From Kaistella sp. (GTDB taxonomy: Bacteria > Bacteroidota > Bacteroidia > Flavobacteriales > Weeksellaceae): a stretch of DNA of 64,000 nucleotides. Shown here piece after piece: positions 47,710-59,877 of the stretch. Where the stretch lies: positions 102,067 to 166,066 of the forward strand of contig NZ_JBGZYM010000084.1 of NCBI RefSeq assembly GCF_041824135.1, given 5' to 3'. The position numbers and the translations under genes are program-made. The number at the start of each line of letters is the position of its first letter. Positions within the stretch are counted from its first letter, which is position 1. The notes below the pieces were generated by a model that was not told the origin of the DNA, made no database searches, and worked only from the letters and a program-made list of their open reading frames with translations.

Positions 47710-47809
47710 GGAGCTTCATCCCGCTTTCCACTATACCTGCCTGCCGGCAGGCAGGTCTTTTTTTCGTCGTTCCTCCTCAAAAAAGGATGCCGTTGCAATC
47801 GGGGCTAGG
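47710..47809. repeat. Structured intergenic element carrying a perfect palindrome insert
   Basis: ccgctttccactata[cctgcctgccggcaggcagg]tcttttt..aaaaaggatgccgttgcaatcgggg; same architecture as copies A and B. Confidence 0.7.
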
Positions 47810-56532: not shown

Positions 56533-56850
56533 ATGGCATTAGAAATTACAGATCAATCATTTCAGGAAATGGTTTTGAATTCAGATAAACCGGTATTGGT
56601 AGATTTTTGGGCAGTATGGTGTGGACCGTGTAGAACACTTGGACCAATTATCGAAGAAGTAGCGACTGATTTCGAAGGAAAAGCAATCGTAGGAAAAGTA
56701 GATGTAGATAACAACCAGCAGGTTTCTGTGGACTACGGAATTAGAAATATTCCTACTGTTTTAATTTTCAAAAACGGAGAAGTGGTAGATAAAATTGTCG
56801 GTGTAGCTTCAAAAGAAGTGATCGCTGAAAAATTATCAGCACATTTATAA
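56533..56850 (+). CDS. trxA: Thioredoxin
   Basis: WCGPC motif in a 105-aa protein. Confidence 0.97.
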   Translation: MALEITDQSFQEMVLNSDKPVLVDFWAVWCGPCRTLGPIIEEVATDFEGKAIVGKVDVDNNQQVSVDYGIRNIPTVLIFKNGEVVDKIVGVASKEVIAEKLSAHL

Positions 56851-56872
56851 AAATAAATTGCTTGAAAATGAG

Positions 56873-56902
56873 TGCTTTCCTGATTAGGAGAGCATTTTTT
56901 TT
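56873..56902 (+). terminator. Intrinsic terminator after trxA
   Basis: tgctttcct / aggagagca stem plus T-tract. Confidence 0.75.
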
Positions 56903-56910
56903 GAATATTG

Positions 56911-56941
56911 TTTGTAGTGTACGATAAAATATGTACTTTTG
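56911..56941 (+). promoter_or_regulatory. Bacteroidota housekeeping promoter for the tRNA locus
   Basis: tttg (56911-56914), 19-nt spacer and tacttttg (56934-56941) match TTTG-N19-TAnnTTTG. Confidence 0.75.
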
Positions 56942-56982
56942 CACTCACCAAAAAGAAAGACGTTCTTTAGAAACTAAGACAA

Positions 56983-57055
56983 CACGATAACTCAATTGAT
57001 TAGAGCATCACCAAGTCACCTCCGTAAGAGTTGATGAATCGAGTTCAAGTCAAAA
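56983..57055 (+). pseudogene. Degenerate tRNA-like relic
   Basis: taactcaattgattagagc (D-arm-like), gtca at the anticodon spacing and gagttcaagtc (T-loop-like); stems broken. Confidence 0.5.
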
Positions 57056-57079
57056 TTGGTTTTATCAAAGCATAAAAAA

Positions 57080-57153
57080 GATCCGGTAGTTCAGCTGGTT
57101 AGAATGCCGCCCTGTCACGGCGGAGGTCGCGGGTTCGAATCCCGTCCGGATCG
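57080..57153 (+). tRNA. tRNA-Asp(GTC), copy 1
   Basis: 74-nt cloverleaf: GATCCGG/CCGGATC acceptor, CCGCC/GGCGG anticodon stem with CTGTCAC loop and TTCGAAT T-loop; CCA not encoded. Confidence 0.97.
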
Positions 57154-57223
57154 CTTTTTTATAAATTACTACTAATTTGTAAAATGCACTATAAAAGTTT
57201 ATCAATACTTTTTCAAAAAAATT

Positions 57224-57297
57224 GATCCGGTAGTTCAGCTGGTTAGAATGCCGCCCTGTCACGGCGGAGGTCGCGGGTTCGAATCCCGTCCGGATCG
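57224..57297 (+). tRNA. tRNA-Asp(GTC), copy 2 (identical to copy 1)
   Basis: Same 74-nt sequence as 57080-57153. Confidence 0.97.
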
Positions 57298-57300
57298 CTA

Positions 57301-57334
57301 ATCTCTCAAATAATTTTTGAGAGATTTTTTTTTT
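57301..57334 (+). terminator. Intrinsic terminator after tRNA-Asp, repeated in every array unit
   Basis: atctctcaaa / tttgagagat stem plus T-tract; copies at 57647, 57990 and 58335. Confidence 0.85.
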
Positions 57335-57335
57335 G

Positions 57336-57575
57336 ATGTGATTTTACGTTTACATACTTTATTCCGCAAGCTTAGATATTTACTACAAAGGTTTTTCGAC
57401 TGATGTAGAGAAGCGTCTGGAATACTATTTAAATTCAAAACATAAATTTACTTCTCAAACTAAAGATTGGGTGATTGTGTATGTTCAACAATTTGAGGAA
57501 AAAGAAGCAGCTTTGAAAGAAGAAAAAAGATTAAAGAAACTCAATCGTAAATCTATAGAGAATTTGATTGGTTAG
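57336..57575 (+). pseudogene. GIY-YIG nuclease copy 1, stop at codon 2
   Basis: atg tga ttt tac gtt tac..; the rest of the frame is open to ..ttg att ggt tag. Confidence 0.85.
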
Positions 57576-57679
57576 AATGCAGATCTGTCATCTCGTCAGC
57601 TGCTGACGAGACGGGTTCGAATCCTCTCGTTTCTGGAACGAGACAAATCTCTCAAATCATTTTGAGAGATTTTTTTTTG

Positions 57680-57910
57680 ATGAGATTTTACGTTTACATA
57701 CTTTATTCTGCAAGCTTAGATATTTACTACAAAGGTTTTTCGACTGATGTAGAGACGCGTCTGGAATATCATTTAAATTCAAAACATAAATTTACTTCCC
57801 AAACTACAGATTGGGTGATTGTGTATGTTCAACAATTTGCTGAAAAAGAAGCAGCTTTGAAAGAAGAAAAAAGATTAAAGAAACTAAACCGTAAATCCAT
57901 AGAAAATTGA
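57680..57910 (+). CDS. GIY-YIG nuclease copy 2, shortened by 3 residues through a 1-nt deletion near the 3' end
   Basis: MRFYVYILYS..YYKGFSTDVETRLEYH..ALKEEKRLK; ends gaa aat tga instead of gaa aaa ttg att ggt tag. Confidence 0.85.
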   Translation: MRFYVYILYSASLDIYYKGFSTDVETRLEYHLNSKHKFTSQTTDWVIVYVQQFAEKEAALKEEKRLKKLNRKSIEN

Positions 57911-58023
57911 TTGGTTAGAATGCCGATCTGTAATCTCGTCAGCAGCTGACGAGACGGGTTCGAATCCTCTCGTTTTTGGAACGAGACCAATCTCTCAAAT
58001 TATTTTTGAGAGATTTTTTTTTA

Positions 58024-58263
58024 ATGAAATTTTACGTTTACATACTTTATTCCGCAAGATTAGATGTTTACTACAAAGGTTTTTCAACTGATGTAGAAAA
58101 GCGTTTGGATTACCATTTAAATTCAAAACATAAATTTACTTCTCAAACAAAAGATTGGGTGATTATGTATGTTCAAGAATTTGCTGAAAAAGAAGCAGCT
58201 TTGAAAGAAGAAAAAAGATTAAAGAAACTAAACCGTAAATCCATAGAAAAATTGATTGGTTAG
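58024..58263 (+). CDS. Small stand-alone GIY-YIG nuclease, copy 3 (intact, 79 aa)
   Basis: FYVY..YYKG (GIY..YIG equivalents), conserved Arg in KRL and Glu in ALKEEK. Confidence 0.92.
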   Translation: MKFYVYILYSARLDVYYKGFSTDVEKRLDYHLNSKHKFTSQTKDWVIMYVQEFAEKEAALKEEKRLKKLNRKSIEKLIG

Positions 58264-58366
58264 AATGCCGCTGTGTCATCTCGTCAGCAGCTGACGAGAC
58301 GGGTTCGAATCCTCTCGTTTTTATAAGGAGACAAATCTCTCAAATTATTTTGGGAGATTTTTTTTA

Positions 58367-58386
58367 ATGAAATTTTACGTTTACAC
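58367..58386 (+). pseudogene. Stub of a fourth GIY-YIG copy (first ~6 codons)
   Basis: atgaaattttacgtttacac matches the start of copy 3, then similarity ends abruptly. Confidence 0.75.
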
Positions 58387-58608
58387 CCTTTCCTTTTATT
58401 TAATTCACTTCTTCAGAAACTTGGGAAATTAAAATTAACACTAATTTTTCTCAGCAATTTTCTTTTTCCTAAATTTATTAATTCCTGGTTTCTGAGTGTC
58501 GAATTAAGAAATGTTATCATTTATCATCCTCATTTATTTTGATTAGTACAAGAAAAATGGTAATATTGTTAAGCAACATTATTTAATAATCTATTTAAAA
58601 ATACATCT

Positions 58609-59877
58609 ATGAAACCCAGTGTTATTTCAATTGTTCTCGGTGGAGGAAGAGGCGCCAGGTTAGCTCCTTTAACCAATACAAGATCCAAACCGGCAGTTCC
58701 GATTGCAGGAAAGTACAGGTTAGTTGATATCCCTATTTCCAACTGTCTTAATTCTGGTTTTAACCGTATTCTGGTGCTGACGCAGTTCAATTCTGCATCC
58801 CTGAATTCTCATATTAAAAATTCATTTCACTTCGATATTTTCAGCAAAGGTTTTGTGGATATTTTGGCAGCGGAACAAAACATAGAAAGTGATGCTTGGT
58901 ATCAAGGTACCGCAGATGCCGTGAGACAATCCATGAAACATTTGGATAAATACGATTACGAATATATTCTAATCCTTTCTGGCGATCAGTTGTATCAAAT
59001 GGATTTCCGTGAAATGATCGACTTTCACTGTAAGAACAAAGGCGATATTACCATTGCTACGATTCCAGTAAATGCGCATGATGCTACAGGATTCGGTATT
59101 TTAAAATCTGATGAAGAAGGGAATATTACATCATTTATTGAAAAACCTTCTGGTGAAGCTTTAAATGATTGGAAATCTGAAGTTTCTGAAAAAAATAAAG
59201 GTGAGGGAAAAGAATATCTTGCCTCCATGGGAATCTACGTTTTCAACAAAAGTGGCTTGAAAAAGATGTTTGATGAAGATGCTGGTGATGATTTTGGTGG
59301 AGAATTAATTCCAAACGGGATTGGAAAATATAAAACATTAAGTTTTCAATATGATGGCTATTGGACCGACATAGGAACAATACAGTCATTTTTTGATGCT
59401 AATTTAGATTTAACAACTGATTTTCCTAAGTTTAACTTGTTCAGTAAATCTCCTATTTATACAAGAGCGAGAATGCTGCCACCTTCTAAGATTTTGGGAT
59501 CGTACGTTAGTAAAGCAGTATTTGGTGATGGCTGTATTATAATGGCTGATAAAATTGAAAATTCAATTGTAGGAAACAGAAGCCGTGTAGATCGAGGAAG
59601 TACCATCATGAATTCGTATATGATGGGTGCTGATTTTTATCAGGACACCAAGGAAATTGTATCGAATGACAATAGCGGAACTCCTAATTTGGGTGTTGGT
59701 AAATATTGTTATATCGAACGCGCCATTCTTGATAAAAATTGTAGAATCGGCGACAATGTAAGAATCATTGGTGGCCAACATTTACCAGATGGCGATTTTG
59801 ACAGCCACTCCATTAAAGATGGGATCGTCATTGTAAAAAAGAATGCCGTCATCACAGCAGGAACTCAGATTCCTTAA
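58609..59877 (+). CDS. glgC: Glucose-1-phosphate adenylyltransferase
   Basis: LGGGRG.RL.PLT..RSKPAVP, GTADAV, SGDQLY, FIEKP and ASMGIY. Confidence 0.97.
   Translation: MKPSVISIVLGGGRGARLAPLTNTRSKPAVPIAGKYRLVDIPISNCLNSGFNRILVLTQFNSASLNSHIKNSFHFDIFSKGFVDILAAEQNIESDAWYQGTADAVRQSMKHLDKYDYEYILILSGDQLYQMDFREMIDFHCKNKGDITIATIPVNAHDATGFGILKSDEEGNITSFIEKPSGEALNDWKSEVSEKNKGEGKEYLASMGIYVFNKSGLKKMFDEDAGDDFGGELIPNGIGKYKTLSFQYDGYWTDIGTIQSFFDANLDLTTDFPKFNLFSKSPIYTRARMLPPSKILGSYVSKAVFGDGCIIMADKIENSIVGNRSRVDRGSTIMNSYMMGADFYQDTKEIVSNDNSGTPNLGVGKYCYIERAILDKNCRIGDNVRIIGGQHLPDGDFDSHSIKDGIVIVKKNAVITAGTQIP

Follow-up and report, generated by a model that had tools for sequence, protein, structure and literature searches.

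SsnA is a single-domain GIY-YIG nuclease of 94 amino acids (aa), which binds the NTS motif (cGTCA, a hairpin and TC) only as single-stranded DNA (ssDNA) and cuts a few nucleotides upstream of it, and it is inactive on double-stranded DNA (dsDNA), RNA and the reverse strand (Chenal et al. 2025, PMC11893778). The sequence of the NTS stem matters and its loop is free, cutting requires the upstream bases, binding depends most on the C that follows the palindrome, and the mutations Y6A, Y17A and E64A abolish the cutting (PMC11893778). Most members of the Ssn family are flanked by their own hairpin motifs, and tRNA is mentioned nowhere in the text of Chenal et al. (PMC11893778). Here we describe an array of small GIY-YIG nuclease genes behind the tRNA-Asp genes of Kaistella sp., in which two hairpins, designated HP1 and HP2, form part of a disabled copy of the adjacent tRNA gene. 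The array lies in a stretch of 64,000 nucleotides (nt) that was analysed as a whole and is called the window (assembly GCF_041824135.1, contig NZ_JBGZYM010000084.1, positions 102,067 to 166,066 of the forward strand; genome 3.19 Mb). With moderate confidence, we read HP1 and HP2 as the sites at which an Ssn-like ssDNA nuclease, their cognate enzyme, binds and cuts. They would be part of a selfish, tRNA-linked cassette.

Two true tRNA-Asp(GTC) genes are located at 57080..57154 and 57224..57298 of the window (ARAGORN; 69.2 bits each with the Rfam tRNA model), and the array begins immediately 3′ of the second one; they and all features of the array are on the plus strand. The array has a period of 344 bp and 3.2 copies with 93% matches (TRF), and each unit consists, in this order, of an intrinsic terminator, a GIY-YIG open reading frame (ORF) and a tRNA-Asp-derived stretch that starts in the D loop. 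The terminator, a hairpin with a T-run as judged from sequence and fold, is found at 57300..57335 and again at 57645-57679, 57990-58023 and 58334-58366, and the ORFs begin 1–3 nt past the T-run. In the first unit, the tRNA-derived segment from the D loop to tGTCA of the anticodon loop, the 5′ flank of HP1, was assigned to 57570..57590 by sequence and alignment. The stop codon of the ORF is the TAG in ggTTAGaat, so that this segment overlaps the end of the ORF. The array ends in the truncated start of a fourth ORF (58367..58387, by sequence), which is cut after about 20 nt, and an end of this kind recurs in the relatives G339 and G001. The neighbours of the array are trxA and glgC-like genes, and no integrase is present inside it. 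ARAGORN and the Rfam tRNA model called only the two true genes at the array and no tRNA on the units. A permissive Rfam scan of 56800-58700 likewise gave only the two true tRNAs above the threshold, and the weak matches were echoes of terminators and tRNA.

The initial annotation had reported that two palindromes replace defined parts of the tRNA fragment, one of them exactly after the anticodon, and both were recovered at the positions it gave. HP1 (tctcgtcagcWgctgacgaga, with the 10-bp stem TCTCGTCAGC/GCTGACGAGA) is present as exact matches at 57591..57611, where it is also seen in the fold, 57934..57954 and 58279..58299; these are three copies with 0 mismatches, against 0.00 expected by chance. 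It abuts ..tgtca of the anticodon loop, which is mutated to tgtaa in the second unit. HP1 occupies the place of cggcggaggtcg of the true tRNA-Asp (12 nt, positions 38–49), that is, of the 3′ strand of the anticodon stem, the variable loop and the first base of the T stem. The T-stem/T-loop block cgggttcgaatcc follows (57612..57624 in the first unit); it is retained in all three units, as had been claimed, and begins with the C that is conserved after HP1. HP2 (tctcgtt-N5-aacgaga) then takes the place of the acceptor 3′ strand, cgtccggatcgc. Its first copy at 57625..57643, supported by sequence and fold, has the 7-bp stem TCTCGTT/AACGAGA and the loop tctgg, and is followed by C. By sequence, the second copy lies at 57968..57986, and the third, at 58313..58331, is decayed and has lost its 3′ arm (tctcgtttttataaggaga), in agreement with the first description. 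The distances of 78 nt for the units and 61 nt for the true tRNA reported there became 76 nt (first unit) and 59 nt between the marks chosen by us, from ggttagaat to the terminator start aatctctc, and the excess of 17 nt is identical. A genome-wide count of the HP1 21-mer with up to 3 mismatches found three sites, all of them in the array. When the first unit was folded as ssDNA, HP1, HP2 and the terminator hairpin were formed at −25.4 kcal/mol, while shuffled sequences gave −12.0 ± 2.5 kcal/mol (z = −5.5).

Two candidate interpretations of the palindromes were rejected. The units have neither the 5′ acceptor strand, the 3′ strand of the anticodon stem nor the acceptor 3′ strand, and a cloverleaf that uses HP1 as the anticodon or variable arm was discarded because the partner strands are absent. 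An origin of the palindromes as P nucleotides or by foldback was discarded because the arms are not inverted copies of the adjoining flank.

The nuclease is encoded completely only by the third ORF of the array (58024..58263), the sole fully intact copy, with 79 aa and a match to PF01541 at an E value of 5.4e-14. This match spans 1–74 of 78 positions, a complete minimal GIY-YIG domain, and the domain takes up the whole length of the protein, with no added DNA-binding domain. The first copy (57336..57575), which by tblastn is 90% identical to the third, is broken by TGA at codon 2, and the second (57680..57910; 76 aa; PF01541 E value 2.5e-12) ends three codons early through a deletion of 1 nt. 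The residues Y6, S10, Y17, G19, R27, H31, W45, A59 and E63 are invariant across the clades of cassette nucleases described below. No NCBIfam family was found for the protein of the window. A promoter −7 box of the Bacteroidota type, TAnnTTTG (tacttttg), is located at 56934-56941 upstream of the tRNA-Asp operon. No promoter of their own is visible for the nuclease ORFs and they start 1–3 nt after a terminator T-run; from these sequence features, read-through is probably the only route to their expression.

In Escherichia coli, the RtT repeats lie in tandem behind tyrT, each with a piece of the tRNA 3′ end. The array described here is similar in that its tandem repeats behind a tRNA gene carry pieces of the tRNA. 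It differs in that each repeat has a nuclease and two conserved hairpins, and no RtT match was obtained in the Rfam scan.

The hairpins are found in many relatives. Within the genus, units with HP1 are present in G024 (four units), G001, G009 and G018, and in K. gelatinilytica (G008) HP1 is shorter, and the native T arm and acceptor strand are retained. The pattern TCTCGT-N(1-14)-ACGAGACGG was detected in 51 of the 401 Weeksellaceae genomes, from 10 of 49 genera, while a control pattern gave 0–1 matches per genome. An orthologous ORF (50–63% identity) lies 45–70 nt behind the native tRNA-Asp in Flavobacterium, Bacteroidales, Chitinophaga and others, and in Flavobacterium it is followed by tgtca-TCTCGTC..GACGAGA-cgggttcgagtcc-TCTCGTT..AACGAGA-c. 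The same layout, tgtca-HP1-13 nt-HP2-c, is shared by Kaistella, another genus of the Weeksellaceae and Flavobacterium, with 11 distinct two-hairpin units; 18 distinct units have HP1 together with the native acceptor strand. HP2 is always followed by C, and one compensatory variant of it, TCCCGTT/AACGGGA, was seen in G009. In every genome examined, two to four intact tRNA-Asp genes adjoin the nuclease gene.

HP1 was aligned from 42 distinct copies in tRNA-Asp context from several genera. The six basal pairs showed zero variation, the 5′ flank TGTCA was nearly invariant, and the 3′ flank CGG was invariant or nearly so, with its C invariant. Pairs 7–9 vary with covariation (pair 9: GC 9, UA 6, AU 5, UG 3 and CG 1), and the covariation score was attained by none of 500 shuffles, while the loop is free to vary. 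The flank and the basal stem stay invariant while the neighbouring bases of the anticodon stem decay. For the covariation check on homologous units proposed in the initial annotation, the outcome is that the palindromes are present and the upper pairs of HP1 covary, and that the six basal pairs do not. The tRNA-derived flanks match the own tRNA-Asp of each host (aatacatgcc in one, aatgccgccc in another) and the hairpins are unchanged, which indicates that the hairpins belong to the cassette and not to the tRNA. As judged from these alignments, HP1 and HP2 are old and conserved in sequence.

Two kinds of HP1-bearing copies can be distinguished. Type B copies are located 3′ of the ORF and keep their 3′ part, and the 5′ part is usually truncated. 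In G339 the type B copies are full length: one hairpin-bearing tRNA-Asp (L072 780-861) has an intact 5′ half, T arm and acceptor stem, and ARAGORN calls it a tRNA-Met(CAT) of 82 nt. From its sequence, this copy is an annotation pitfall, and in G339 it may give rise to a processed tRNA-like RNA. Type A copies have no ORF and are located among the native tRNA-Asp genes or upstream of them; they retain an intact 5′ half, and their acceptor 3′ strand is scrambled. Across genera they carry a common old variant of HP1 (loop agag), which is unlike the type B copies of the same genome. In the window, a decayed tRNA-Asp-like relic of type A with a degenerate HP1, its 5′ half kept and its 3′ end scrambled, was aligned at 56984..57055 on the plus strand, between the operon promoter and the first tRNA-Asp. 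Its alignment score was 49 against the HP1-bearing type A pseudo-tRNA of G024 and 22 against the true tRNA-Asp. With the type A relic upstream and type B copies downstream, HP1-type sites thus bracket the native tRNA genes and the nuclease gene. In another genome (G038:C3:30600-34400, L070), tandem units of about 110 bp comprise only a pseudo-tRNA-Asp, from the D loop to the 3′ end with HP1, and a terminator. No ORF separates these units, which look like former cassettes that may have lost the nuclease gene and kept the hairpin.

The linkage of nuclease and modified tRNA copy is not limited to tRNA-Asp. In the genus Kaistella, GIY-YIG ORFs lie behind tRNA-Arg, tRNA-Met, tRNA-Ala, tRNA-Asn and tRNA-Asp, and behind each stands a copy of that tRNA in which a hairpin replaces or interrupts an arm. 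The Met cassette has a hairpin with the stem TCCGCC/GGCGGA right after ctcata in the tRNA copy, in the Ala cassette a hairpin with the stem TCCCGAA/TTCGGGA replaces the anticodon arm, and the Asn cassette has two TCCCGA hairpins, which stand in place of two parts of the tRNA copy. The genome studied here has a second cassette itself (C117:50473-53706; L007, minus strand 1960-1350), whose ORF of 81 aa is 32% identical. The Arg cassette comprises the true tRNA-Arg(TCG), a terminator, the GIY-YIG ORF and a copy of tRNA-Arg that extends from the D stem to the terminator, and a perfect 20-nt palindrome of the CCTGCC type is cleanly inserted at tRNA position 31/32, as is also the case in G012; in G026 a related palindrome is placed in the T loop instead. 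The 20-nt palindrome occurs in the own genome as four exact and two near copies in unrelated contexts. One perfect palindrome, cctgcctgcc/ggcaggcagg, identical to that of the tRNA-Arg cassette, is located at 47736-47755 of the window in a small repeat element after a signal-peptidase-like ORF.

In the protein tree, all 24 ORFs followed by TCTCGT hairpins (24/24) fall in one clade (support 89/93), and the other hairpin types are in clades of their own (CCTGCC, 98/90). The hairpin labels require 10 changes on the tree, compared with 21.8 for shuffled labels. Because relatives share labels by descent, the tree demonstrates linkage, not co-evolution.

The protein of the array and SsnA are both single-domain GIY-YIG nucleases of 80–100 aa and share their catalytic residues: the two Tyr, the Arg and the Glu are intact here (Y6, Y17, R27 and E63; Y6, Y17 and E64 in SsnA). 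Both genes are flanked by oriented short hairpins with a conserved stem, a free loop and a C after the palindrome, and in our array such hairpins flank every ORF. The 5′ flank is of the GTCA type in both, cGTCAttcccgcg.. in NTS and tGTCAtctcgtc.. here. The pattern of conservation of HP1, with a fixed stem base and fixed flanks around a free loop, fits recognition by a protein and matches the rules of SsnA and NTS, as far as can be judged from sequence. On the other hand, the hairpins of this locus belong to a disabled tRNA copy derived from the neighbouring gene, there are 3 exact copies, while Ssn motifs occur in hundreds, and the published SRM pattern does not distinguish them. From domain size, catalytic residues and the grammar of the hairpins, the protein is a candidate member of the Ssn clade (cd10448).

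The anatomy of the locus, the conservation, the linkage and the intact catalytic residues are established here, and by analogy with the Ssn family we infer how such a nuclease would work. It would bind the hairpin of the sense strand when this becomes single-stranded, during replication, heavy transcription of the tRNA operon or DNA uptake. Recognition would depend on the invariant stem base TCTCGT/ACGAGA and the following C, and the nick would fall upstream of HP1, inside the tRNA-Asp-derived segment. The position of HP1 exactly after the anticodon may be explained by its flank: tGTCA of the anticodon loop would serve as a 5′ flank that resembles GTCA of the Neisseria NTS. The motif-bearing strand has a positive GC skew and an excess of genes, from which it is the lagging-strand template; as it is also the non-template strand of a heavily transcribed operon, it is often single-stranded. 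The orientation of the motif is compatible with its being an ssDNA site. The nicked end in the tRNA-homologous DNA could then recombine or undergo gene conversion with the real tRNA-Asp genes, which would explain both the tandem arrays that end in a truncated ORF and the flanks that track the host tRNA. We also put forward, as a tentative and rather doubtful extension, that mini GIY-YIG nucleases and hairpins together form a new type of selfish element that lives on tRNA genes across Bacteroidota and moves by hairpin-guided nicks. In such an element, nick-driven recombination would multiply the cassette, in tandem arrays and at new tRNA loci, and maintain the match between its flanks and the host tRNA, and mobility would be guided by hairpins without a transposase or integrase.

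Several results weigh against reading the hairpins as sites of an Ssn-like nuclease in a selfish cassette. Three of the four ORF copies in the window are defective, and the best solved relatives of the nuclease are the UPF0213 proteins 1zg2 and 1ywl. The published degenerate SRM pattern did not discriminate, with 3 exact matches in the genome and 10 in a reversed control, and HP1, like about 1,600 other sites, fits this pattern with 2 mismatches. Not all hairpins have the GTCA flank: those of the TCCCG type in other cassettes follow ..gagc(a/g). The linkage between hairpin type and nuclease clade can be explained by common descent alone. Finally, the old variant carried by the type A copies is different in sequence from the ORF-linked copies of the same genome, so that ongoing spread of the hairpins is conjectural.

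When all hairpins with stems of at least 5 bp were screened genome-wide for a 5′ GTCA flank, no enrichment was found; AT-rich hairpins dominate this count, and its result depends on where the stem is taken to end. The GTCA-flank signal was observed only in specific repeat families near a third GIY-YIG gene of the genome. This gene of about 98 aa (C84:35263; L008, C84:33763-36978, outside the window) is flanked on both sides by alternating repeat arrays, in which GTCATTCC-N3-GGAATC on the minus strand alternates with GTCACGCT-gga-AGCGTC on the plus strand. The layout of this paralogue, with arrays of GTCA-hairpin-TC repeats, resembles the classical NTS-ssn-NTS arrangement.

An alternative is that the hairpins are independent palindromes of the repetitive extragenic palindrome (REP) type, or neutral scars in a dispensable pseudo-tRNA, functionally unconnected with the nuclease. 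The genome has 19 TCTCGT..ACGAGA hairpins where 0.6 are expected; 13 lie outside the array, and some belong to composite repeats. The palindrome of the tRNA-Arg cassette is dispersed, including the copy at 47736-47755 of the window. Exact HP1, however, is restricted to the array, and it is found at the same position of the tRNA copy in several families of Bacteroidota; its basal stem and flanks are invariant amid decaying anticodon-stem bases, and the type of hairpin tracks the clade of the nuclease. We consider this alternative improbable. The suggestion in the initial annotation that the palindromes are REP-like mobile inserts holds in part, for the short stem type and the Arg palindrome, and fails for exact HP1. 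REP sequences and bacterial interspersed mosaic elements (BIME) with RAYT, and the Y1 enzymes of IS200/IS605 (as described in PMC11893778), share with our locus short GC-rich hairpins that are read in ssDNA by a small nuclease encoded nearby, as is proposed here, and related hairpins dispersed in the genome. They differ in that a GIY-YIG nuclease forms no covalent intermediate, that HP1 is not dispersed, and that its site is inside tRNA-derived sequence. The many dispersed near-identical copies typical of REP and REPIN sequences are not seen for HP1, and only the short stem type is enriched. In the composite dispersed repeats (for example at C70:32320, C78:7139, C69:26758 and C101:53504), TCTCGTC-loop-GACGAGA appears as an interchangeable module within ctgcagcc-hairpin-gagctcttttt.. 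and ..gggcagac.., and other copies bear a different hairpin at the same position.

SegB of phages T4 and T6 is a multi-domain dsDNA homing enzyme. This free-standing GIY-YIG enzyme is encoded among tRNA genes, which it is reported to target, and drives segmental amplification (PMC13096335). By analogy, the hairpins could disable the tRNA copy and so confer immunity on the copy linked to the cassette, with the nuclease acting as a homing endonuclease that cuts the native tRNA-Asp at about positions 38–49; a defined part of the tRNA is indeed replaced, and tandem arrays are present. The gene among tRNA genes and the local segmental or tandem amplification are the points of likeness to the phage system (PMC13096335). 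Here, by contrast, the protein is chromosomal and has 79 aa without a DNA-binding domain, dedicated hairpins are present, and intact, target-like tRNA genes stand alongside. Two to four intact tRNA-Asp genes adjoin the nuclease gene in all the genomes examined, which means that the enzyme cannot target the native gene efficiently. Moreover, the replacement is always the same conserved hairpin, and the second hairpin replaces a different part of the tRNA. No DNA-binding domain is joined to the nuclease as in the Seg and I-Tev homing endonucleases, and the own genome does not hold only a resistant variant of the target. A homing-immunity function is therefore unlikely. Of the earlier proposal of recognition or immunity sites, the recognition half is supported by the linkage to one GIY-YIG clade and by the conserved stem and flanks with a free loop as in Ssn, and the immunity half is not supported, in view of the intact tRNA-Asp genes and the specific, conserved replacement.

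The hairpins could also be parts of a structured RNA, either a mimic or decoy of tRNA-Asp or a 3′ stabiliser or processing signal of the nuclease mRNA. The region between ORF and terminator is on the transcribed strand, its fold is stable (z = −5.5), the T-loop block is kept, and G339 has the full-length hairpin-bearing tRNA-like gene of 82 nt called by ARAGORN. The units of the window and of Flavobacterium, however, lack the acceptor 5′ strand and the 5′ part of the D arm, and with the acceptor 3′ strand replaced as well no cloverleaf can form; neither Rfam nor the tRNA models gave a match. The six basal pairs, with zero covariation in 42 copies, are unlike a helix selected for its shape only, and SsnA is inactive on RNA (PMC11893778). 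An RNA function accordingly has little probability, and the suggestion that the units mimic tRNA-Asp was not borne out. Least probable by far is that the partial tRNA copies are attachment-site (att) duplications of an integrase-driven element with the hairpins as its ends: DNA that integrates into a tRNA gene is typically flanked by a complete and a partial copy of the tRNA afterwards (PMC9897764), as at our locus, but the 344-bp unit is a tiny insert that encodes only the 79-aa nuclease, no integrase is present in the array, and the partial copy is tandemly repeated and not an exact duplicate, being interrupted by hairpins.

Literature searches for GIY-YIG with tRNA-Asp, for Bacteroidetes and for partial or pseudo-tRNAs gave no description of a tRNA-linked cassette. 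Pairs of Ssn-type nucleases and hairpins are known, and no account of such hairpins inside disabled copies of the adjacent tRNA gene was found in the searchable literature. This also applies to the defined substitutions of tRNA arms, to the two-hairpin module common to Weeksellaceae and Flavobacteriaceae, and to the clade-specific hairpins for five tRNA species in one genus. For annotation, the cassettes account for a class of pseudo-tRNAs and mis-called tRNAs, such as the 82-nt 'tRNA-Met' on a hairpin-bearing tRNA-Asp copy. The natural pairs of enzyme and site, of the TCTCGTC, TCTCGTT, TCCGCC, TCCCGAA and CCTGCC types, are material for testing specificity and are relevant to ssDNA tools. Ssn-type nucleases were characterised only in 2025, and the hairpins embedded in tRNA copies point to a role for them, in the parasitism or the remodelling of tRNA loci.

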